Below, in pieces: positions 15,401-53,093 of a stretch of DNA of 64,000 nucleotides. The stretch comes from Thermoplasmatota archaeon (GTDB lineage Archaea > Thermoplasmatota > Penumbrarchaeia > Penumbrarchaeales > Penumbrarchaeaceae): contig JARVGK010000003.1 in the NCBI GenBank assembly GCA_029762535.1, positions 64,001 to 128,000 on the forward strand, given 5' to 3'. Position numbers and translations under genes: made by a program. Within the stretch, counting starts at the first letter, position 1. Each line of letters begins with the position of its first letter. The notes under the pieces are model-generated. The model was not told the origin of the DNA and did not search any database. It worked only from the letters and a program-made list of their open reading frames with translations.

Positions 15401-16735
15401 GTCCGCTCCAACCCGGACCCCGAAGGAGTTGTCCGCCCTTATGGAATAGCTGTTCGAAGAAAGGAGCGCCCCCCTGCCCGGACCGAGAACGATGCCGTTG
15501 GTCATCATACCGCTGGTCATGATGATGTCATTGATCAGGGTGAGGTTCCTGTGGTCGGAGAAGGCCGCTATGATCGATCCATTCCCCCCTTGGTAGAAGT
15601 TCGATCCCGATATGGACATATCAACGCATCCCAGTAGGAACGACCCGTTCACAAGGCCCCCGGAGAGGGATATGCCCGTTTGATTATCCCCCTTCGAGGA
15701 ATAGGACAGGTCCATGATCGAGCATCCTATGAGATGGGTGCCATTGAGGAAGGACGAACCGTTCCCGAGCATGTTCACAGATGTATTGCTCAGCATGACA
15801 TCCCTCACGTTGAACACCTCGATACCTCTGGCTCCCGAGTCCAGGAAAAGGGCCGTCCCGTTCATTGTGACGTTATCACACGATGAAAGTTCGATGCCGT
15901 GTGTGTTCTTACCGGTCATGGTGAGGAAGCAGCCCTCTATCTCTATCCCGGAACCGGAGAGGTGCATCGCCGTTCCGACCATCTCGATGATCATGGCATT
16001 GAGCTCGAGGTCTGTACCCTGGAAGTGGATCCCAGATGCTCTCCCGGTCGATGTGATGCTGGAGTTATGGAAGTGGATGGAATCTCCCGAGATGATGAAC
16101 CCCTTTGAACCGGACCCGAGTCCTATGTCCATGTCCCTGAAGGTGATGTTCGAGACATTGATGGCATGGCATATCGTGGATCCCGATCCGTCACTTGCCA
16201 TTTTCCCCAATATGATGTTCGATGAATTGGCTATGTTCACGCAGATGTCCGGCGATCCCGAGAAGGATGCTCCGTCGATCTCGATGGACTTCGACGACTC
16301 TATGTTCAGAGCGATGCCGGTCGTTGACCTGAAGCCGATCCCCGTCAGATCGATGTCGTTCGAGGAGATGTTGAGAGACCGACCGACGAAGGTCATGCCG
16401 GCCAATGTTACGAAGGGAGCGGTCACACTGCTGTTCTTGCCATACGGGCCTGAGATAAGTACCGATGCCGTATCATTACCCCTGAGCGTTACGGAACGGG
16501 TCCCGACACTGATCGATTCGTTGTAATTGCCGGATGCGATGACTATTACATCGCCCTCGACGGCATCGCCCAGGGCTGCCCCTATGGTGGAATAGGTGGA
16601 TCCCGTCCCGACGTAAAGTACGAGTCCGGATGCCCCGCGTGGGGTTATCAGCAGGATCCCCGATGTGAATAACAATAATACCATGGCCGTTGCGATGAGC
16701 TTACCTTTGCGTTCCCCGGCGTGTACTTCGATCAT
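12404..16735 (-). CDS. Large surface protein: parallel beta-helix (pectin-lyase/NosD-like), FN3 domains, Ig-like domain, TM anchor and very acidic cytoplasmic tail
   Basis: LYVGTGSTYSTIGAAL...VIVIASGNYNESI beta-helix start; FN3 patterns LKWDPN..AYRIY and YTLGGLVPGTLYGFRMLAFD; TM; D/E-rich tail. Confidence 0.85.
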   Translation of the reverse strand: MIEVHAGERKGKLIATAMVLLLFTSGILLITPRGASGLVLYVGTGSTYSTIGAALGDAVEGDVIVIASGNYNESISVGTRSVTLRGNDTASVLISGPYGKNSSVTAPFVTLAGMTFVGRSLNISSNDIDLTGIGFRSTTGIALNIESSKSIEIDGASFSGSPDICVNIANSSNIILGKMASDGSGSTICHAINVSNITFRDMDIGLGSGSKGFIISGDSIHFHNSSITSTGRASGIHFQGTDLELNAMIIEMVGTAMHLSGSGIEIEGCFLTMTGKNTHGIELSSCDNVTMNGTALFLDSGARGIEVFNVRDVMLSNTSVNMLGNGSSFLNGTHLIGCSIMDLSYSSKGDNQTGISLSGGLVNGSFLLGCVDMSISGSNFYQGGNGSIIAAFSDHRNLTLINDIIMTSGMMTNGIVLGPGRGALLSSNSYSIRADNSFGVRVGADQTEIRDSTFIVWGEASSGSILSGTDNVLIDSTLTSFNDGWLLHLGGSNNEVVYSQIYLNGPGTGIDVLGDVRRGVIDGCSIDLIGEGSTGIRAGPVPPHTTNLRILTTMIHSDPGTGHSIVTGHDTTSMMMKDVIIWSNTTMAALDLSGNDIVLDHVIVKSAGIGLESNSARLLMNNSKVDAQRSVIFREGDHAVVGSDIVASGTALSAYEGAEVEVLDTTVSSFDVDPMSNVMISNTIGVRVLYKDVQPMEGVELHVVNERTGGLHSTPYFGGSDPVTGPDGGIAPFVALKMIYPGSNAPMNVRTNATVHVPGTAMIWDHVYDIDTSAPMSVELVVPDIDLPQSVLNLTADSLDTLESIKLKWDPNDDDTIAYRIYSFSSGEWILSGEVDHPSTSWISPEIGPSTRGIFRVSAFDGVWEGAPSQPATNITSDLTPPATPTSAIISDKGVDHLTISWDPGSETDLEGFIIEMNSTPSMTQFETLVTLGPGETSYTLGGLVPGTLYGFRMLAFDTSYNYSPYTPVFQGTTERMLYSLEVTVLYEGGPLSGQGAQGSIVRLLSFNGTLIESAQAQEDGVVGFSSLEMGGEYRLEGAPEAALRGEIGVRSGYLSNTSTFISASGPNPDLFTELFLTYYLRPETGSIDVFVAFGEGPRSGAVFNALIELLSMDDVVLENRTTNNLGEATFSIRTLPFIGRFKVTPPESVSAIPGKRAGYLQKMTNTFEVSSQEPYWGRFEIRLDYLDFTPPPRELLVLWRTPVGTVRDLDTSIRIMFNQPMDTLTIESYTTIDPPLKGARYVWTNNNQSLEILHDGLGNRVSYTVRIGTEARSIEGAGFPQGYTNNTWTFRTERTIVGSDGIPREVMYAALAIFAIIIIAIGVYIYIKQPRDDDLGTDEEEFDPYSYDYLDEEAYGDADEEADEDLEDEEYLEDEGEPEDEEEGAEEEGYEDEEDLEDEVLEDDEVGPEVETSEEDMSAETPPDDDGSERATVRTRKRVKRK

Positions 16736-16843
16736 ATCCTTCGCCCTCCCCGGCGCTATCGCCTATCCATATGCAACAACGCCATCAATTAATTTTCCTG
16801 ACATATGTAAAAGATTTAAAAGGGGGACGCTTTCATCCTGCTC

Positions 16844-18076
16844 ATGCATCCGACGGATGAGTTGAGGGGCGCAGCATCGACCCTCCTCGAAGGTAGAACG
16901 ATCGTCCTTGGCGTAACTGGGTCCATCGCTGCGGTCGAGTGCGTCAAACTCGCCAGGATGCTAATCCGTCACGGCGCTGCAGTTCATGCTGTCATGACGG
17001 CGGAGGCCAGGAAGATAGTGGGGGAGTACGCCCTCGGCTTCGCAACGGCGAACCAAGTCATCACCGAGCTGACCGGAGACCTCGAGCATGTGGCTATGTG
17101 CGGGGACGTTGAAGGGCGGGCGGACCTTCTCCTGATCGCCCCCTGCACCGCCAACACCCTCGGGAAGATCGTCAACGCTATCGACGATACCCCCGTCACG
17201 ACGTTCGCCACCACGGCGATAGGGACAGGGATCCCGTTGATCGTCGTTCCCGCCATGCACAATACCATGTACGCCCACGAGGGTGTGGCCTCCAACATCA
17301 AGAAGGCCAGGTCCATGGGCATAGAGGTTGTGGACCCGGTGCTCTCCGAGAAGAAGGCCAAAATGGCCCCGGTGGACACCATAGTCGAGATCGCGATAAG
17401 AAAGCTCTCCGGAGGGGGCCTTCAAGGTCGAAAGGTTTTGATCGTCGCCGGGGCCAACCGGGAGGAGGTGGACGATATGAGGCTCCTTACCAACAGGGCG
17501 ACTGGAAGGACCGGGATCCATCTGGCCATGGAGGCTTTCAGAAGAGGGGCGGACGTGACCCTCCTTGCCGGAGTATCGGTCCACGGGATCCCGCCTCACT
17601 TCAGGACGGTTCGCTTCGGAGGGGTCATGGACCTCTGGGAGAAAGTGGAGGAGGAATTGTCTTCCTGCGACCAGTTCGATATCGCCCTCTTCCCGGCGGG
17701 GATCTCAGACTACATACCTTCCAGGTTAGATGGGAAGGTCCCCTCGGGACGGGAGGAGATGACTCTCGAGCTCAAACCCGCCATAAGGATCATGGATCGC
17801 TTCGTGAAGAGGGGCGGTAGCCGCCTTATCGTGGGTTTCAAGGCCGAGAGCGTATCGGGTGAGGAGCTCCTGAGAAGGGCCTACAGGAGGCTTAAGGAGG
17901 TCGGGATGGACCTGATCGTGGCGAACGACCTTTCTCAGGTGAAGGAGGATTCCAATCACGTTATGATAATATCGAACGACAGGGAGGTCCTCGACATCGA
18001 GGGATCGAAGGCTGACATCGCTTCCGTGCTCATGGCGAGATGCCAGGAGATGCTCGTCGGGATAAAGGAGAGTTGA
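16844..18076 (+). CDS. coaBC: Bifunctional phosphopantothenoylcysteine decarboxylase/synthetase
   Basis: VLGVTGSIAA, IAPCTANTLGKI, VPAMH, LTNRATGRTG, VGFKAE and DLIVAND motifs. Confidence 0.96.
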   Translation: MHPTDELRGAASTLLEGRTIVLGVTGSIAAVECVKLARMLIRHGAAVHAVMTAEARKIVGEYALGFATANQVITELTGDLEHVAMCGDVEGRADLLLIAPCTANTLGKIVNAIDDTPVTTFATTAIGTGIPLIVVPAMHNTMYAHEGVASNIKKARSMGIEVVDPVLSEKKAKMAPVDTIVEIAIRKLSGGGLQGRKVLIVAGANREEVDDMRLLTNRATGRTGIHLAMEAFRRGADVTLLAGVSVHGIPPHFRTVRFGGVMDLWEKVEEELSSCDQFDIALFPAGISDYIPSRLDGKVPSGREEMTLELKPAIRIMDRFVKRGGSRLIVGFKAESVSGEELLRRAYRRLKEVGMDLIVANDLSQVKEDSNHVMIISNDREVLDIEGSKADIASVLMARCQEMLVGIKES

Positions 18077-18079
18077 ACC

Positions 18080-19273
18080 ATGGTACTGCGAGGTGGAGCT
18101 TTCTGCCCCGGGCATATCACCGGGCTTTTTTCCATACACGACGATACCGAGATGTACCTCCACAAAGGCTCCAGGGGGTCCGGGGTCTCCGTTACCCTCG
18201 GGGCCTCCGTTTCCACTGCACTGTATCCCCCTGAAGATGGGAACGGGACGGAGAACCTTTCACTGGAGCTTCATGTAAGGGGAGTTGACAAGTTCCCCGT
18301 GAACGATCCGATATACCGCCAGGTCCTGAAGGAGATGCTTCCCAATTCAGGTATCGGATGGAGGGCGGCTGTAAGGTCGAACCTGCAGCTGCCCGTAGGT
18401 CAGGGGTTCGGAATGTCGGGAGCCGGCGCCCTAGCCACCGCAATTTCCGTCTGGGAGGCCCTCCATTCGACCATTCCGCGCTGGGACCGAAAATTGAGGT
18501 TCAAGGGACAGCAGGAGATGTTCTTCTCGATGAAAACGTCGGAGTTCAGCGTCAGGCCGATAAGGAGGAGGATGCGCTCACACCTGCAGCTTCTGTCAAT
18601 GAAGGAGGAACCCTCGCTGCCTGTCCAGCCTTTCGGCAAACCCTCAGGAATGGTGGAGGAGGGAGGGGTCAGGCCCCCCATGAGGTGGCTCAAGGACAGC
18701 GAGGCCGAAAAAGGGTCCGGTGGGATCACGTACGCCGATTGCGTGAACGCGGCGCACAGGGTCGATGTCATGATCGGCGGAGGTCTGGGCGATGTGATCT
18801 CACAGGCCAGGGGCGGCGTGGAGATCAGGATGTCTCCCGGCGTCCCGCCCTACGGGGAGATCCACACCATCCCCGTGGAGCTGGACAACACCCCGAAAGT
18901 GATCGCCGCCACGGTGGGGCCCCCGATAGAAACTTCGAGGGTGATAGGGAATCCCGCAAGAAGAGAAAGGATACACGGGGCGGGCGAGGCGGCGTTGAGG
19001 AGGCTGACAGAAGCGCCATCGATGACCATGATGATGTCAGAGAGCAGGCAGTTCTCCATCGAGGCCGGGATCCAGAGCATGATGGTGAGGTCCGCCCTCT
19101 CCGAAGTCGATGCGATGGTGAAGGCCTCGCAGATAATGATCGGCAACAGCGTGTTCACCATGGTACCGAGCAAGGATAAGGACCTCGTCAAAAGTATCAC
19201 GGAGATCTGGGGAAGGAGAGGAAGCGTATTCTCCATGGACGTGGACCTGATCGGTGCGAGGCCCTTGACCTGA
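18080..19273 (+). CDS. Pantoate kinase (archaeal GHMP kinase) with a large internal insertion
   Basis: AFCPGHITGLF, GSRGSG, LPVGQGFGMSGAGAL, AHRVDV..GGGLGDV and SQIMIGNSVF motifs; directly after coaBC. Confidence 0.88.
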   Translation: MVLRGGAFCPGHITGLFSIHDDTEMYLHKGSRGSGVSVTLGASVSTALYPPEDGNGTENLSLELHVRGVDKFPVNDPIYRQVLKEMLPNSGIGWRAAVRSNLQLPVGQGFGMSGAGALATAISVWEALHSTIPRWDRKLRFKGQQEMFFSMKTSEFSVRPIRRRMRSHLQLLSMKEEPSLPVQPFGKPSGMVEEGGVRPPMRWLKDSEAEKGSGGITYADCVNAAHRVDVMIGGGLGDVISQARGGVEIRMSPGVPPYGEIHTIPVELDNTPKVIAATVGPPIETSRVIGNPARRERIHGAGEAALRRLTEAPSMTMMMSESRQFSIEAGIQSMMVRSALSEVDAMVKASQIMIGNSVFTMVPSKDKDLVKSITEIWGRRGSVFSMDVDLIGARPLT

Positions 19274-19575
19274 CCAGCAGGGGTTCCTAAAGTTCCCAAG
19301 AGATGATACCGCCTTGTACACGAAGAAGAATATTGAGGCCGATATCTTCATTTGAATCCGATCAGGGCCGATCGGATCCTATCACTGAAGCGAACTTCGT
19401 ACGATCGGAGCCATCCATTCGATCCCTATTGACCCGACACGGGAGGGATCACATTGTTCTTGTTTCGCTTCTACCCAAACGTGATATAGTTAAAAAGCCT
19501 AACCGGGAAAGAAAAACCCTTATAGGCCATCCCTTTTGAGCGCACTGGGGTGATCGAAAAAAACAATGAAGGCGA

Positions 19576-20646
19576 GTGTTGATCATGTTGGAGGACCAGC
19601 TTTCCACATCCAGGTTCGAGAGCGTTGGGGTCAATGTCCCCTCCAGGTCACTCACGACCACCGACCTTATGAGGTCCATGAAGCACAGGATCGGGCTAGA
19701 CCTCGAGAGGCTTACGGGCATCCATGCTAGGAGGGTCTGCGCCCCAGGAGAGTCATCATACACATTGGCCCTGAATTCCGCCAGGGACTGCCTCAGCCAT
19801 TCGAGATACAAGCCGGATGACCTGGAGGTTATAATAAACTGCTCCATATCCCGTTCAAAGGACCGGAACATGATAGTCTATGAACCATCCATGGCCCATT
19901 ACATCCGTCAGGCGATCGGGGCCAAGAACGCAATGGTGTTCGATATCAACAATGCATGCGCTGGAATGCTAACGGGCGTTCAGATACTAAACGGTTATAT
20001 CAGGAACGGAATATTCAAGAACGGCATGGTCGTCAGCGGAGAGCATATAACGCCGATCAGCGACAGCGCGACAAGGACGGTCAGGTCGATAGCGAGCAGA
20101 CAGCTCGCCTCCCTTACCGTTGGAGACGCGGGAGCCGCGGTAATACTCGAAAAAACGGGGGATCGGGGCAACGGGATGTCGGTCACCCAGTTCACCACCC
20201 TCTCGAAGTTCAGCAGGCTCTGCATAGGAAAGCCGCTCACCAACGATATCGGCGGAATGATGGTGGCAAAAGCAAGGAAGATCCACAGGGTGGCCCTGGA
20301 CCACGCCCCTCAACTGATCAAGGGGGCCCTCATCAAGGCGGGACTGACCATAGACAGGATAGATCATCTCATCCCGCACCAGACCTCGAAAAGCTCAATA
20401 AAGAAAGGCATAAAGGAGATGGCCGACCATTTCAAAGCGACTCCCAAGAACGTCGTCATCAATCTGATGGAGTATGGGAATACGGCCTCGACGACAGTGT
20501 TCCTTGCCCTTCATGACATGCTCAAGGGCGGCATCGTGAAGAAAGGCGAGAAGATCATGCTATTGTGCTTCGCATCGGGCCTGGTCGTTGGGGTTATCAT
20601 CTTTACAATGGACGATCTGGTGGATCGATATGGGATCTCGAATTAG
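19576..20646 (+). CDS. oleA: OleA/KAS-III-type acyl-CoA condensing enzyme, catalytic subunit (LstA-like)
   Basis: YEPS Glu, FDINNACAG catalytic Cys, IPHQTS His, YGNTAS Asn, VVSGE and LTVGDAGAAVIL; ATG alternative at 19585. Confidence 0.85.
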   Translation: MLIMLEDQLSTSRFESVGVNVPSRSLTTTDLMRSMKHRIGLDLERLTGIHARRVCAPGESSYTLALNSARDCLSHSRYKPDDLEVIINCSISRSKDRNMIVYEPSMAHYIRQAIGAKNAMVFDINNACAGMLTGVQILNGYIRNGIFKNGMVVSGEHITPISDSATRTVRSIASRQLASLTVGDAGAAVILEKTGDRGNGMSVTQFTTLSKFSRLCIGKPLTNDIGGMMVAKARKIHRVALDHAPQLIKGALIKAGLTIDRIDHLIPHQTSKSSIKKGIKEMADHFKATPKNVVINLMEYGNTASTTVFLALHDMLKGGIVKKGEKIMLLCFASGLVVGVIIFTMDDLVDRYGISN

Positions 20647-21526
20647 GTCAGCCGCATTCGTTGGGAAGAGCCTCAACCCTTTCTCCAGAGGCGCCATATC
20701 ACTGGGTGTCAAGGCTGCGAGGAAATGCATCCATAACTCGGGTATAGACCCGTCAGACATAGGACTGCTCATCTTCTGCGGAATATACCGGGACGAGAAC
20801 ATCGGGGAGCCGGCCATCGCCTCGCTCATACAGTCCAATCTTGATATCAACCTCCTGAGCGAGGGTGAGAAGGGGACGTTCGCGTTCGACATACTGAACA
20901 GCGGTTGTGGGATGGTGACCGCGCTCCATGTGGCCGACAGCCACCTCCGATCGGGTGGAGGTGAATATGCGATGATAGTGGCCTCCGATCACATACCCAT
21001 CCCGAGCCATACCGAGGGTTACCCTTTCCAACCCGGGGGAGGCGCACTTCTGCTCGAACGCTCCGACGAGGACAGGGGCCTTACCGATTTCAGGTTCGAT
21101 ACATATCCGACCGACAAGGAGGCCTTCCACTCGTTCATCGAATACAGGGACGGAAAGGAGAAGGGTAAAAAGAAGGGGCAGTTCCTCAGGTTCGAGGAGG
21201 ACCCACATTTCCTGGAAAAGGGCGTATCGGGTGCGCTTATGACGGTTAATAAACTCCTTGAGAGGAATTCACTGAGCATCGATGACGTACGGTCGATCCT
21301 GCCATCCCAGAGCCCGACAGGCTTCCCCATTGCCCTTGGAAAAGGGTTGGGCCAAGAGAAGAGGACCATTGACCTTACAAGCATCCATGGGAACCTCCAC
21401 ACGGCGGGATTGGCGGCCTGTCTCGAGAGCGCCATGGAGAGCGATAAGCTTCCTGCGAACTCGAACCTCCTTCTCGTAAATGTTGGATCGGGAATATCGG
21501 TGGGCGCGGCCCTTCTCCGAACATGA
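20630..21526 (+). CDS. Second KAS-III-fold subunit with degenerate active site (LstB-like partner)
   Basis: GEPAIASLIQ Glu retained; FDILNSGCG has Gly at the Cys position; LPSQSP has no His; HGNLHTAG; start overlaps the upstream gene end. Confidence 0.8.
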   Translation: MGSRIRSAAFVGKSLNPFSRGAISLGVKAARKCIHNSGIDPSDIGLLIFCGIYRDENIGEPAIASLIQSNLDINLLSEGEKGTFAFDILNSGCGMVTALHVADSHLRSGGGEYAMIVASDHIPIPSHTEGYPFQPGGGALLLERSDEDRGLTDFRFDTYPTDKEAFHSFIEYRDGKEKGKKKGQFLRFEEDPHFLEKGVSGALMTVNKLLERNSLSIDDVRSILPSQSPTGFPIALGKGLGQEKRTIDLTSIHGNLHTAGLAACLESAMESDKLPANSNLLLVNVGSGISVGAALLRT

Positions 21527-21557
21527 ACCATAGACCGGCCGGGACCTGTTATATCCG

Positions 21558-22553
21558 TCAGATCGGATGCCCCTTCAGATATTCTCCATACCTCTTCATA
21601 CCCTCCGCCGTGGAAATCCTAGGTCCGTAGCCAAGGTCCCTTTTGGCCGAGGAGATATCGAACCAGTGTGAACTGGTCATCTCCTCCACAAGGAACCTGG
21701 TGACAATGGGCTCTCCTCTCCTTCGAAGGAGGAAGTGGGTCAATTCCATGATCCCCGCTAAAGCCATGGCCGTCCATTTGGGAATGGACCCCCTGATAGG
21801 AGGGGCCCCTGCAAGGGCCAGGAAGTCATCGATGGCATCCCAGGCATTCACTGGCTCACCGTTGGTGATGAAATATGCTCTGCCCCTGCATCGTGGGTTC
21901 TCCTTGAGCGCTTTGAGGGCCAGGATATGGGCCTCGGCGGCGTTTTCAATATAAACCATGTCCACAACGTTCTTTCCGCCCCCTAACCTCTTCAACCTTC
22001 CGGCCCTTGCCCCCTGGACGAGCCGAGGGAGCAATCGGTCGTCCCCCGGACCCCAGATGAGATGCGGACGCAGTGCAATGGTCCGAATATCATCGCCGTT
22101 CGCTGAGAGGACCATACGCTCGGACGCCGCCTTGGTCCGGTTGTAATGCGACCCATGCACTGCGGGATACGGTGCGCTCTCATCGGCGCCCTCCATGTCC
22201 TTCCCATCAAAGACAACGGAAGGGGAGCTTGTGAAGACGAGGTAACCCACTCCGTTACTCCTGCATGCTTCGATCACGTTCCGGGTCCCCTCAACGTTCG
22301 TCCTGTGGAATTCGTGATAAGGCCCCCAGAAACCCACCCTGGCAGCAGTATGTATGACCGCATCCATGCCCCCGACGGCATCCACCACCGTTCGCTGGTC
22401 CCCTATGTCCCCTGATATCGTCATGATGCCGCTCTTCCCAAGTTCAGGATAGCTGCCTCTGGAGAAGCTCGTGACATCATGGCCCTGATCCCGGAGCATG
22501 TGACATATGGCTCCTCCCAGGAACCCGCCTCCGCCGGTGACGAGGACCCTCAT
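21558..22553 (-). CDS. oleD: OleD-like 2-alkyl-3-oxoalkanoate reductase (3-beta-HSD-type extended SDR)
   Basis: VTGGGGFLG, FTSSPSVVF, YNRTK, LRPHLIWGPGD and AYFITNGEP; start overlaps the oleC stop (TGATG). Confidence 0.88.
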   Translation of the reverse strand: MRVLVTGGGGFLGGAICHMLRDQGHDVTSFSRGSYPELGKSGIMTISGDIGDQRTVVDAVGGMDAVIHTAARVGFWGPYHEFHRTNVEGTRNVIEACRSNGVGYLVFTSSPSVVFDGKDMEGADESAPYPAVHGSHYNRTKAASERMVLSANGDDIRTIALRPHLIWGPGDDRLLPRLVQGARAGRLKRLGGGKNVVDMVYIENAAEAHILALKALKENPRCRGRAYFITNGEPVNAWDAIDDFLALAGAPPIRGSIPKWTAMALAGIMELTHFLLRRRGEPIVTRFLVEEMTSSHWFDISSAKRDLGYGPRISTAEGMKRYGEYLKGHPI

Positions 22554-24175
22554 CAGAATTGCCTCCCGGCCCATTCCGCAAGCTCTTCCCTGAGTATCTT
22601 GGCATTGTGGCGAACGTCCATCGGGAATCCGTCATGGATCAGGATATCTCTAATATCCTCGGTCAGAATATTGGCCTTTCCCAAAGCCAGGAGCTCCTTT
22701 TTGATCCTGTCCGGATCGCCGATATTTTGGTCCTTCTTAAGCTCGACAACGATCACAGGCCTCTGGTTTCCTATTTGACCCACACCGACTAGTGCCGACC
22801 TGAAGACCAAGGGGTGTTTGTTGAAGATCGCCTCACATCTGACGGGATATAGCGTTCCTTTCTTTGTCACGACCCTGTGCGCCTTCCTCCCGCAGAACCA
22901 GAGCATTCCGTCCTCCAGATAGCCCGTGTCCCCCATTCTGTGCCATATGGTCTTGCCATCCAGTATCTTGGCGTTTTTGGTATGCTCAGGCTTCCTGAAG
23001 TATTCCTTGGTCACCGAGGGCCCCCTCACGCATATCTCACCGACTTCCCCATCCGGTAGGACCTCAGCGGACCCCCAATCCGCGACAGGTCCGTCCGTGA
23101 TCCGAATGATCCGAACCTCGTTGCCAGGTAGCGGCCTACCCACGCATGTTCCTGCTCCGGTCTCGGTCCTGCGGAGGGAGTGCTCCAGTATCACATCGCT
23201 GGAGATATCAGTTACTGGCAGTGCCTCGGTCGCCCCGTAAGGAGTATGGATAAGAGCATTTTTTGGCAGTATTCGGTGAAGATCGACCATGAGGTCGGGA
23301 CGTATTGGAGCTCCCGCGGTCACGATCCTTCTCACCGATCCCAGGGTCAACTTCCTCTCTATCCCGTAACGGGCCAGGTTCGTCAAGAGCGCCGGGGAAC
23401 CATAGACATTGGTGCATTTCTGGTCCTCAATGGCCCTGACTATGTTCTTAGGATCGGCCTTTCCGGGCTTGGTAGCATCCATGTAAGGGATGACCGAGGT
23501 CAGCCCCAGGTTGGCGTCGAATAGGGCGAAGAGCGGGAACGTCGCCAGGTCAACATCTCTCTTTTCGTATCCGAAATGGTCCTTTAGGAATCCGATCTGA
23601 TGGTCGAACATGGAATGTTCGTAGACCACTCCCTTCGGGGGGCCTGTGGAACCGCTGGTGAAGAAAATACCGACGGTATCCTCAGGCCTTCTCTTGACCG
23701 AAGGGAAAGGAGCGGGATCGGAGGATCGAACCTCTTTAAGCCTCTTACCGCCCCATGCACCTGTGGTTATCTTCAGTTCGACGGTCCTGAAAGCGGACGG
23801 TGAGAGTATCCTGAGTACATGGGCAAGGGGCGTCCCGATGAACGCCTTGGCCTCGACCTCCCCGAGGGAGGAGACGAGCCTCTTCTTGCCCATACCAGGG
23901 TCTATCATAACAAGGACAGCCCCCATTTTTAAAAGGGCGGAAGTGAGGGAAAAGAACTCTATCGAGGGTTTGACCATCAGGATGGCCTTGTCGTCCTTCT
24001 TGAGCCCCGCATCGATCAACCCCCTGGCGTATCTGTTCGATTCCTCCTCTAGCCTGCGGTAGGTCATGCTCCTATATCGAGGAGACGGATCGACCTGGAC
24101 CACCACAGCCGCCTTATCAGGTTGTGTCCTTGCTAACTCCGTCAACCTCTCCGAGAGGTTCGTCGTCGAATCCAT
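22553..24175 (-). CDS. oleC: OleC-like beta-lactone synthetase (ANL superfamily)
   Basis: FTSGSTGPPKG, DLATFPLFALF, TPYGATEALPV, WHRMGDTGY, LWFCGRKAHRV and OleC-typical FPMDVRHNAKI. Confidence 0.9.
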   Translation of the reverse strand: MDSTTNLSERLTELARTQPDKAAVVVQVDPSPRYRSMTYRRLEEESNRYARGLIDAGLKKDDKAILMVKPSIEFFSLTSALLKMGAVLVMIDPGMGKKRLVSSLGEVEAKAFIGTPLAHVLRILSPSAFRTVELKITTGAWGGKRLKEVRSSDPAPFPSVKRRPEDTVGIFFTSGSTGPPKGVVYEHSMFDHQIGFLKDHFGYEKRDVDLATFPLFALFDANLGLTSVIPYMDATKPGKADPKNIVRAIEDQKCTNVYGSPALLTNLARYGIERKLTLGSVRRIVTAGAPIRPDLMVDLHRILPKNALIHTPYGATEALPVTDISSDVILEHSLRRTETGAGTCVGRPLPGNEVRIIRITDGPVADWGSAEVLPDGEVGEICVRGPSVTKEYFRKPEHTKNAKILDGKTIWHRMGDTGYLEDGMLWFCGRKAHRVVTKKGTLYPVRCEAIFNKHPLVFRSALVGVGQIGNQRPVIVVELKKDQNIGDPDRIKKELLALGKANILTEDIRDILIHDGFPMDVRHNAKILREELAEWAGRQF

Positions 24176-24179
24176 CAGC

Positions 24180-25082
24180 CTACCCCCTGCGCAGGGCTTT
24201 CCCCACCTCTTTCAGGATGCGGTCCCTGGCATCCTCTATGACATAATGTCCAGCATCCTGATATGTCACGAATCGGGCCTTCGGGAATCGAGCCCTCCAG
24301 ACGTCTAATATATCCATATCGAATATGAAATCCTTTTCACCCCAAATAACGAGCATCGGCTTCCCCTTTAGCTTTGACAGGTTCTCGTCGATCCACTTGA
24401 GCGTGCCGTAGCTTGGGTCCTTTGGTACGAGGGGTATGTCCTGAACGAACCTGAGCGTGGATAGGCGGTTCCTCCACGAGTTGTACGGGGCGACGTAACC
24501 CTTCCTTACATGGGGGTCCATCCTCTTTTCAACGCCGATATGGGACGCTATTCTGGAAAAAGCGTTGAGACCCCTGATGAGAAGGGTCGGTGAGATCAGG
24601 CCGTACTTCACGTAATAGAGAGACAGGGGCAATCTCTTGCCCTCCGGCATCCTGAAGGCCGCGGTGTTCATGAACACGAACCTCGAGAACCGCTCCGGAT
24701 GTCCGACCGCGACCCCTGCTCCGATCACACCCCCCCAATCATGGGCTATCAGAGTGATATCCTCATCGATGCCCAGGTGATCGAGGAGCGCTTCCACATC
24801 CTGGATCCTGGATGCGATCCTGTATTGGTATTTGTCCTCTCCTGGTCGGTCCGACAGCCCCATTCCCATATGATCGGGCACGATGCATCGGTGGTCCGCC
24901 CTGAGGTCCTTGACCAGCTCCCGGAAATAAAAAGACCAGGTCGGGTTGCCGTGAAGAAAAAGAACGGGAGGTCCCCTGCCCTCGTCGAGATAATGATGCC
25001 TCAGACCGTTCCTCTCGAACCAGTGATGTTCGAACGGGTAAATGTCCCTGAAAGGGGTAATATCGAAAGGTGTTCCATGCAT
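24180..25082 (-). CDS. oleB: OleB-like beta-lactone decarboxylase (haloalkane-dehalogenase-like alpha/beta hydrolase)
   Basis: YPFEHHWF, LHGNPTWSFYFR, AHDWGG, RFVQDIPL and AGHYVIED; directly upstream of oleC. Confidence 0.88.
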   Translation of the reverse strand: MHGTPFDITPFRDIYPFEHHWFERNGLRHHYLDEGRGPPVLFLHGNPTWSFYFRELVKDLRADHRCIVPDHMGMGLSDRPGEDKYQYRIASRIQDVEALLDHLGIDEDITLIAHDWGGVIGAGVAVGHPERFSRFVFMNTAAFRMPEGKRLPLSLYYVKYGLISPTLLIRGLNAFSRIASHIGVEKRMDPHVRKGYVAPYNSWRNRLSTLRFVQDIPLVPKDPSYGTLKWIDENLSKLKGKPMLVIWGEKDFIFDMDILDVWRARFPKARFVTYQDAGHYVIEDARDRILKEVGKALRRG

Positions 25083-25248
25083 TGTATCCGGGGACCAAGG
25101 TCCATATCCTAAATTAAGATTGCTTCGGGGATGATCCGCTTAGATCGATCTATTATCATCCATCATCATTCATGAACCCCGGGATGTTTAATTATGGTCG
25201 AGTGGGGTTCGAATCCCGTGCGTCGCTAGAGCTACAACAAATTAGATA

Positions 25249-25335
25249 TGGTGCAGGGGAAGGGATTCGAACCCTCGAACCACTAAGGACCAGACCCTGA
25301 ATCTGGCGCCGTTGGCCAGGCTTGGCTACCCCTGC
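25249..25335 (-). tRNA. tRNA-Leu(CAG), CCA encoded
   Basis: Reverse complement GCAGGGGTAGCCAAGCCTGGCCAACGGCGCCAGATTCAGGGTCTGGTCCTTAGTGGTTCGAGGGTTCGAATCCCTTCCCCTGCACCA: acceptor stem, CAG anticodon, variable arm, TTCGAAT loop. Confidence 0.96.
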
Positions 25336-25657
25336 ATGTTTTTGCGTTTGTGCCTGGGTAGCGTATGGCCAACGGCGCCCCGAGACGCAGTCTCGGTGAT
25401 GGCGCCTCGGATGGGTGGCATGTGCCACCCGTCCCCTTCCGCGAACGCTTTGGTGGTGAGACCAAAGGGTTCTTGGGCAGGCTTGGCTACCCCTGCATGT
25501 TTTTGCGTTTGTGCCTGGGTAGCGTATGGCCAACGGCGCCCCGAGACGCAGTCTCGGTGATGGCGCCTCGGATGGGTGGCATGTGCCACCCGTCCCCTTC
25601 CGCGAACGCTTTGGTGGTGAGACCAAAGGGTTCTTGGCCAGGCTTGGCTACCCCTGC
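25312..25657 (-). repeat. 161-bp tandem repeat: three copies of the tRNA-Leu 5' 24-mer separated by two identical 137-bp hairpin-rich units
   Basis: ttgg(c/g)caggcttggctacccctgc at 25312, 25473 and 25634; intervening units identical. Confidence 0.93.
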
Positions 25658-25699
25658 GATATCTGGGCATCGTTGATACGATGTCGCCTTTAACGACCG

Positions 25700-52502: not shown

Positions 52503-53093
52503 TTAAAGCCGTATGCTGCCGAACTTCTCCGGGTGCTTCCCCTCTATCCCTTCGTAGAAACGGGCTATGACCTCCATGTCCTTTTCCTGATCCCCGGTAA
52601 GGGTGTAGAACCTTCCGATCCCCCCCTCCTTCTTCTTGAAATCGAGATATCCGAATCCCAAGGGAACCCCGGCCCCCAGAGCGATGTGGTAGAACCCGCT
52701 CTTCCAACGTTCGGTCCTCTTCCTTGTCCCCTCGGGGGTGATGGTTATCATGAGCTCATCCATCTCCCTGAAGGCCTTTATTGTCTGATCCACCCGGTTC
52801 ATGGTCTTGCTTCTTTCAATAGGGATCCCGCCCAACCATCTGAAGAACCAACCCAAAGGAGGCTTGAACAGCGAATGTTTGCCGAACCAATGTCCCTTGA
52901 TATCCGTGGCGAACGCGATCGTGAAGATGATGACGAAATCCCAGTTGGAGGTATGCGGAGCGAGTATCAACAGGTACTTCTCATGTCCCGAAGGCCCGCC
53001 AACCGCCTTCCATCCGGTCGATCCGAGAAGGATCCTGGATAGCCTCCTCAGAGCAGGGTAGATGACGGGTGTGTCGAATATGGTCCGCTGCAT
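52503..53093 (-). CDS. Lysophospholipid acyltransferase family (PlsC-like)
   Basis: HTSNWD (HX4D), GGIPIER, TPEGTR and WKSGFYHIA. Confidence 0.92.
   Translation of the reverse strand: MQRTIFDTPVIYPALRRLSRILLGSTGWKAVGGPSGHEKYLLILAPHTSNWDFVIIFTIAFATDIKGHWFGKHSLFKPPLGWFFRWLGGIPIERSKTMNRVDQTIKAFREMDELMITITPEGTRKRTERWKSGFYHIALGAGVPLGFGYLDFKKKEGGIGRFYTLTGDQEKDMEVIARFYEGIEGKHPEKFGSIRL

Follow-up and report, generated by a model that had tools for sequence, protein, structure and literature searches.

The window analysed here is a 64,000-nucleotide stretch of DNA from a Thermoplasmatota archaeon (GCA_029762535.1, contig JARVGK010000003.1, positions 64,001 to 128,000 of the forward strand). It contains five adjacent genes, at 19585–25082, that probably encode a pathway for the head-to-head joining of two acyl chains, with a condensing enzyme made of two subunits and a long-chain olefin with a cis double bond at mid-chain as the product. 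A preliminary description of this DNA had proposed a complete ole-type pathway in an archaeon. This proposal holds in so far as the five genes are intact and oleB, oleC and oleD are of the olefin type, but the condensing enzyme is not OleA.

All five open reading frames are present without interruption. The first two lie on the + strand and encode the condensing pair: KS1 (19585–20646, 353 residues; a GTG at 19576 is an alternative upstream start) and KS2 (20630–21526, 298 residues). They overlap by 17 nucleotides, and the identical overlap occurs in bacterial and archaeal homologues. The remaining three lie on the − strand: oleB (24180–25082, 300 residues), oleC (22553–24175, 540 residues) and oleD (21558–22553, 331 residues). 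A gap of 4 nucleotides separates oleB from oleC, and the oleC stop codon overlaps the oleD start (TGATG). The two blocks converge across 31 nucleotides. The preliminary description of a tight minus-strand oleB-oleC-oleD operon facing two genes related to β-ketoacyl-ACP synthase III (KAS-III) was thus accurate, as was its statement that the catalytic motifs of OleB, OleC, OleD and the first condensing subunit are intact. A promoter and terminator scan of the cluster gave no excess over shuffled sequences, the scanning model being bacterial and the host an archaeon. No RNA data set that contains the cluster was listed, which speaks neither for nor against its expression.

KS1 has the features of a catalytic KAS-III subunit. 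Its triad C125/H265/N299 is invariant across 40 homologues, and the predicted structure is a thiolase fold with a predicted local distance difference test score (pLDDT) of 89.6. The two condensing genes had been taken for OleA, an identification that did not survive closer comparison. As references for Lst, Nlt and Ole proteins we used a syntenic lst-type cluster from Streptomyces (L119/L120) and bacterial oleABCD loci in place of the characterised proteins. The published OleA signature reads EPxx[AS]x(14,18)DxxNACL (PMC7158056). In KS1, which carries E100-P101, the signature ends in NACA, as it does in 112 of 120 homologues and in the LstA-type protein; NACL was found in 26 of 26 single OleA proteins from the comparison loci. 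The score of KS1 against the NCBIfam model PRK09258 (144 bits) lies below the cut-off of 285. In the phylogenetic tree, KS1 groups with the LstA-position protein of the Streptomyces cluster and is split from single OleA with a support of 100. Signature, model score and tree position together rule out a canonical OleA and place the pair with LstAB and NltAB. Fold searches with KS1 and KS2 did not tell FabH apart from OleA. One of the reference loci (L119, Streptomyces sp. NBC_00390, CP107945) carries a full lipstatin-type cluster with two KAS-III genes, a synthetase, a reductase, a nonribosomal peptide synthetase (NRPS) and a formyltransferase.

KS2 is shorter than KS1 and has lost the catalytic triad: the cysteine is replaced by G92 and the histidine by S226, and N255, present in this copy, is not kept across the KS2 family. 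None of the homologues has a cysteine at position 92, and all 39 of 39 contain E60 and P61, in a register where FabH has Phe-Pro. KS2 is a homologue of the LstB-position gene in the Streptomyces cluster. In LstB, E60 is essential and the catalytic triad is absent (PMC12141560); NltB also lacks the triad, depends on E57 and is active only together with NltA (10.1101/856955). The archaeal genes match this arrangement, with two adjacent genes of which the first encodes Cys-His-Asn and the second a truncated, triad-less protein with a glutamate near position 57–60. From this homology we infer that KS1-KS2 is a heterodimeric condensing enzyme of the LstAB/NltAB type that catalyses the condensation step, with E60 of KS2 as the presumed general base. 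In the KS2 family His257 is invariant and Cys93 near-invariant despite the loss of the triad; these residues possibly belong to a remodelled site.

A model of the KS1-KS2 complex reached a score of 0.95, and the best of 3 controls scored 0.01. At least 97% of the contacts are common to the individual runs, the partner pLDDT is at least 90, and the predicted interface takes in KS2 residues 55–65 (the Glu60 loop) and KS1 residues 120–130 (the cysteine region). Of 78 solved complexes, 51 attain the mark used for this score, as do 2 of 108 mismatches. Since structures of FabH and OleA homodimers have been solved, this result may reflect likeness rather than binding. KS1 might also form a homodimer, since it retains its own Glu100 in all homologues. 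The genome contains no other OleA-like gene; a third match to PF08541 resembles hydroxymethylglutaryl-CoA synthase and adjoins a thiolase gene.

The three downstream proteins group in trees and in NCBIfam comparisons with proteins of bacterial ole clusters, and not with the generic FadD-type ligases or the divergent hydrolases tested. OleC exceeds the cut-off of PRK09274 (656 versus 478 bits); its next matches are two olefin β-lactone synthetase models, and it does not reach the equivalog cut-offs for Xanthomonas and Shewanella. The protein contains the TSGSTG loop and the motifs YGATEA and DVRHNAKI. In the tree it belongs to a clade (support 100/99) with Syntrophia and canonical OleB-associated bacterial OleC, apart from the LstC type and the Bacteroidales type. 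OleD has the motifs GGGGFLG and YNRTK (YxxxK), and its best families are two OleD models with 399 and 362 bits (E values of 2e-119 and 3e-108; equivalog cut-off 580), followed by a non-OleD family with only 129 bits. Its gene follows oleC, and the tree places it with OleD from ole clusters. OleB is of the subfamily III haloalkane dehalogenase type. Its catalytic residues are N46, D115, W116, D251 and H279, and the motifs HGNPTWS, HDWGG, WGxxD and GH[YF]xxED are common to all 32 other ole-cluster OleB proteins tested. OleB groups with canonical-cluster OleB and is separated from the Bacteroidales-type hydrolases with a support of 100. NCBIfam gave no match to an OleB-specific model; haloalkane dehalogenase models scored below cut-off, as expected for the subfamily III type. 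By orthology we assign these proteins the putative functions of an NAD(P)H-dependent 2-alkyl-3-oxoalkanoate reductase (OleD), an ATP-dependent β-lactone synthetase (OleC) and a β-lactone decarboxylase (OleB). Since OleC falls into the OleB-associated clade and OleB has all the canonical motifs, the downstream enzymes point to an olefin. The hallmarks of a lipstatin-type cluster are absent, as neither an NRPS nor a formyltransferase gene is adjacent in the window, and oleB is present.

Based on these assignments, the pathway may operate as follows. Cys125 of KS1 in the KS1-KS2 heterodimer would accept the first acyl chain. Glu60 of KS2 would enter the KS1 site and deprotonate the α-carbon of a second acyl thioester. 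Condensation would proceed without decarboxylation and yield a 2-alkyl-3-keto acid, which OleD would reduce with NAD(P)H to the 3-hydroxy acid. ATP-driven ring closure by OleC would give a β-lactone, and decarboxylation by OleB a mid-chain cis-olefin destined for the membrane or a storage lipid. The most likely source of acyl donors would be the organism's own type I fatty acid or polyketide synthase (FAS/PKS) with a fused phosphopantetheinyl transferase (PPTase), together with the adjacent carboxylase, comparable to the supply of Ole by Pfa in Shewanella. Fatty acids scavenged through acyl-CoA ligases are a weaker alternative.

We located this synthase by searching the genome for acyl carrier protein (ACP) domains. 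The search returned four, at residues 1936, 2029, 2126 and 2223 of a single 3,308-residue protein (P0274, contig C17:819-10745, L220). A flavin-reductase-like N-terminus (a lead from Atlas, score 0.94) is followed, in this order, by ketosynthase (KS), acyltransferase, second KS-like, the four ACP, ketoreductase, dehydratase and PPTase domains. The protein scores 997 bits against the PfaA model (cut-off 1010). The next gene (C17:10833-17261) encodes a 2,142-residue, single-chain acetyl-CoA carboxylase of eukaryotic style, and the contig also carries the archaeal replication factor C. Synthase and carboxylase are a plausible source of acyl chains. Their presence makes straight-chain donors likelier than the isoprenoid-acyl donors considered in the preliminary description, for which we found nothing in the sequence. 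The synthase occurs in 21 of the 23 genomes of the family and, judged by its KS region, in 132 of 401 genomes of the phylum, including many in several other families. The carboxylase occurs in 10 of the 23 family genomes, and the query found none in two ole-bearing genera. The distance between synthase and oleBCD is about 20 kb in two genomes from one related genus; in the window genome the two are not adjacent. Searching loci with the synthase as query gave no named relatives of use. The genome further encodes six full-length AMP-binding ligases, five acyl-CoA dehydrogenases, two PlsC-like acyltransferases (one in the window at 52503–53093, − strand, PF01553, with an HTSNWD motif; one on contig C14) and homologues of PcrB/geranylgeranylglyceryl phosphate (GGGP) synthase and glycerol-1-phosphate (G1P) dehydrogenase. 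The pairing of the type I synthase with the carboxylase may outweigh the ole cluster as a finding.

Genes of the five-gene set recur across the archaeal family, mostly with the condensing pair and oleBCD at separate loci. Among the 23 family genomes, oleC and oleB each occur in 9, oleD in 8 (on the ninth contig, the sequence stops within oleC) and KS1 in 12. All genomes with oleC also carry KS1, and oleB is coupled to oleC in every member examined. Complete genomes that lack one of the genes lack all of them, and all five are absent from two genera and from one near-complete genome of a third. The convergent linkage is shared by the window genome and a contig from the Joint Genome Institute with 65–82% identity; five convergent genes are found in L114 and L117. 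An archaeal-flanked contig from the European Nucleotide Archive (ENA; L118) contains a co-directional run KS1-KS2-oleB-oleC-oleD. In the phylum as a whole OleC occurs in 11 of 401 genomes, all within the same class. The archaeal sequences form clades with supports of 100/100 for OleC, 85 for OleB and 96 for OleD, and in an RpoB tree the window genome is the earliest branch of the family (support 88). The simplest reading is a single gain at or before the family ancestor followed by splitting, rearrangement and loss. Since the gene trees join the window genome with genus g5 and the RpoB tree does not, transfer within the family may also have occurred. In one relative (G004, L088:7499-9035) oleC is split into two frames by a frameshift or an assembly error.

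A single origin of all archaeal OleC was rejected. G032, a genome from another family of the same class, contains KS1-KS2-oleC-oleD (L087, G032:C25:15470-20297), and its OleC is of separate origin (approximately unbiased (AU) test, p = 0.0002). No OleB match was found in this 91% complete genome, and the four genes are a candidate for an independent archaeal β-lactone pathway. The OleC of another 'Thermoplasmata' member (P0182) also branches apart. A more distant tandem KAS-III pair occurs in at least 11 genomes of a further family of the phylum (f31, L298-L304), with 28–31% identity to KS1 and a KS2-like gene of 233–237 residues. There, the next gene encodes a conserved membrane protein; no OleC match was found, and the type I synthase is present.

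The closest bacterial homologues come from Syntrophia-like Deltaproteobacteria. A full co-directional KS1-KS2-oleB-oleC-oleD operon is found mainly in these genomes (L106, L108, L127-L131), with the same five genes in the same order as in the archaeal ENA contig L118 and identities of 51–54% for KS1, 36–39% for KS2, 49–53% for OleB, 55–57% for OleC and 51–54% for OleD. The bacterial copies adjoin phasin, ABC1 kinase, LolA-like and MMPL genes; in the window, the two blocks converge. At least 572 stretches among species representatives match the KS1 family. In the 73 bacterial loci that we read, KS2 stands beside KS1 in 71, OleC lies within 8 kb in 18, and a true OleB is present in 6. Bacteroidales and KSB1 have a version of the cluster with a divergent hydrolase; KS pairs that stand alone are found in Actinomycetota and Myxococcota, with OleC absent from the two genomes of this kind that were tested. 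The gene set would have been gained by or before the family ancestor, with its closest relatives shared with anaerobic bacteria such as Syntrophia; since the trees of OleC, OleB, OleD and KS1 do not settle how archaeal, Syntrophia and other bacterial sequences branch, they do not establish the direction of transfer.

The nearest non-archaeal homologues being bacterial, and the assembly breaking at a repeat on the right edge, one may ask whether the cluster is a bacterial contaminant or a chimeric join, or merely consists of generic ligase, dehalogenase and sterol-dehydrogenase homologues. We regard this as barely credible. The contig that holds the window measures 137 kb, and the genome, at 2.96 Mb, is 93% complete and 1% contaminated. 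The host is a Thermoplasmatota archaeon, and the closest named loci are from metagenome-assembled genomes of this phylum. In the probable source run, a single 39-kb unitig with an even depth of 14.3 spans 16000–25200 with zero differences; in an independent study, a single 20.8-kb contig covers 16002–25226 at about 90% identity. These single contigs carry the cluster together with its archaeal left flank, a pantoate kinase-like gene and coaBC, as the preliminary description of a cluster contiguous with archaeal genes implied. Another ENA assembly, distinct from L118, has the same order of the five genes and the same left flank, with 91–95% protein identity for the five genes. For each of the five genes, third-position GC content and codon adaptation are within 0.5 standard deviations of the genome mean, and orthologues occur in 9–12 related genomes and form archaeal clades. 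On the right, the assembly breaks at a tRNA-linked repeat in every read set, with similar depth in the contigs on either side. Runs X2-X4 have few words in common with this stretch, and no statement on habitat is based on them. Spanning contigs from two studies, the ENA assembly and host-like codon usage rule out a chimera or contamination: the cluster is real.

Three other explanations accept the cluster and differ in what it makes. The pathway could end at a dialkyl β-lactone similar to nocardiolactone, or at the hydroxy acid, with OleB hydrolysing or recycling the lactone; such a product might inhibit lipases or proteases or serve as an envelope lipid. LstAB/NltAB-type condensing enzymes are indeed known only from β-lactone pathways, and G032 has KS1-KS2-oleC-oleD with no OleB match. 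We nevertheless consider this outcome unlikely, because in the window oleB is intact, coupled to oleC and orthologous to the OleB of canonical clusters, OleC is of the olefin type and of separate origin from that of G032, and neither an NRPS nor a formyltransferase gene is nearby. It is rather improbable that the same chemistry acts on other substrates, that is, on short or branched acyl-CoAs from amino acid breakdown or on isoprenoid acyl-CoAs, to give short, branched or asymmetric olefins with no relation to the synthase. The heterodimeric LstAB does join two different chains (PMC12141560), the genome encodes the five acyl-CoA dehydrogenases and many CoA ligases, and the distribution of the synthase does not follow that of the ole genes. 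Against this, NltC prefers C20 over C14 backbones and NltAB condenses myristoyl-CoA (10.1101/856955), the closest bacterial relatives share the five genes (about 50–57% identity; KS2 36–39%) and have no archaeal isoprenoid chains, and no sequence feature indicates isoprenoid donors. Finally, the KS pair and oleBCD might not form one pathway at all, so that the pair alone would make dialkyl ketones or branched keto acids and the adjacency would be meaningless. The stand-alone pairs common in Actinomycetota and Myxococcota, and three relatives with the pair and no oleBCD (genomes 62–86% complete), would fit this view. It is very unlikely, given that the genome has no other OleA-like gene, that archaea and Syntrophia-like bacteria link the five genes in three layouts, and that every oleC-bearing relative has the pair.

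Several observations also weigh against an olefin made by these five proteins from chains supplied by the synthase. Within the literature that we searched, which excluded most subscription journals and is no proof of novelty, no characterised LstAB-type heterodimer is coupled to OleB; LstAB and NltAB feed β-lactones. KS1 and KS2 share 36% and 28% identity with the lst-type proteins. The KS pair has no nearby oleC in 55 of the 73 bacterial loci, and most archaeal relatives keep KS1-KS2 and oleB-oleC-oleD at separate loci; since the pair is often found apart from oleC in bacteria and archaeal relatives, it may have other uses. The OleB motifs do not separate OleB from subfamily III dehalogenases. 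On the supply side, three of the four ACP motifs of the synthase read LGIDTV, with threonine instead of the phosphopantetheine serine, and in several relatives every ACP motif found has threonine. The synthase was not found in the five Syntrophia-like genomes tested, and since it is present with or without ole genes, co-occurrence does not tie the two together. Photobacterium profundum SS9 contains oleABCD and produced no detectable hydrocarbon (PMC6463001), so that the presence of the genes is no proof of product. A mid-chain olefin made by a two-subunit condensing enzyme is still, on balance, the reading that we favour.

The archaeal cluster combines elements of two known systems. With the OleABCD systems of Xanthomonas campestris, Shewanella and Micrococcus it shares OleB-C-D orthologues in the same order with intact catalytic residues and a Glu-Pro general-base motif on the condensing side. 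It differs in that the condensing enzyme is split into a catalytic and a presumed glutamate-donating subunit instead of being a homodimeric OleA, in OleC and OleD scores below the Xanthomonas and Shewanella equivalog cut-offs, and in having an archaeal host. LstAB from Streptomyces toxytricini (lipstatin) and NltABCD from Nocardia brasiliensis (nocardiolactone) provide the precedent for a tandem KAS-III pair with the triad in the first protein, a shorter, triad-less second subunit with a glutamate (E60 here, E60 in LstB, E57 in NltB), and a partner reductase and β-lactone synthetase. Unlike these systems, the archaeal cluster includes OleB and an OleC of the olefin lineage and no NRPS or formyltransferase, and identities to the Streptomyces stand-in cluster are only 28–40%. 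In Shewanella, the Pfa synthase feeds OleA to give the C31:9 hydrocarbon (PMC6463001). The window genome likewise combines ole genes with a type I synthase that has several ACP domains, but in the archaeal synthase a single chain includes the PPTase and, at the N-terminus, a flavin-reductase-like domain, and its gene does not adjoin the ole genes.

The view that the pathway is confined to bacteria, expressed in the preliminary description, was too strong. A 2024 preprint claims in one sentence, from annotation only, that Hodarchaeales (Asgard) have an entire OleABCD (bioRxiv 10.1101/2024.07.04.601786). This claim likewise rests on genomes, but concerns a different phylum and names OleA, and no Asgard sequence was among the closest homologues retrieved for the cluster proteins. 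Our literature search found no report of ole genes or of a type I synthase in Thermoplasmatota, and the paper on Ca. Penumbrarchaeia (EX4484-6) does not mention olefins or ole genes. Environmental surveys that use oleC as a marker for hydrocarbon production refer to bacteria only (PMC10176705, PMC13170169), and according to one description archaea have no type I FAS and only very rarely an ACP (10.1101/2024.07.05.601840).

Novelty is tempered by the Asgard precedent and by the occurrence of the same architecture in bacteria. Archaeal membranes are defined by their isoprenoid chains. The genes discussed here suggest bacterial-type lipids alongside isoprenoid lipids in these archaea, which are uncultured and live in sediments. 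We tentatively propose that the family makes acyl chains de novo with the type I synthase and the carboxylase, and that part of it converts them to head-to-head membrane hydrocarbons with a heterodimeric condensing enzyme. If so, isoprenoid ethers and lipids derived from fatty acids would coexist in these archaea, and some of the mid-chain alkenes in sediments that are credited to bacteria could have an archaeal origin. A pathway that uses two acyl chains, together with the synthase, the carboxylase and the PlsC-like, GGGP synthase and G1P dehydrogenase homologues, would offer a test of the lipid divide outside Asgard archaea. It would, moreover, be the first case in which an LstAB-type heterodimer could be tested as the supplier of an olefin pathway; uncultured Syntrophia have the same architecture.

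A functional tie between the cluster and the neighbouring CoA genes was considered and rejected: the flank is conserved no further than the closest relative and differs in other members. The pantoate kinase-like gene (18080–19273, + strand, 397 residues) extends about 100 residues beyond family models through an internal insertion. On the other side, tRNA-Leu(CAG) lies at 25249–25335. Directly upstream of it (25336–25658, − strand) are two tandem units of 161 nucleotides, identical at 160 of 161 positions. Each unit begins with the first ~23 nucleotides of tRNA-Leu and has a strong predicted fold (z = -6.25); no match was found in Rfam. Since the depth of the unitigs at this repeat is about double the local value in two studies, the duplication appears to be real.

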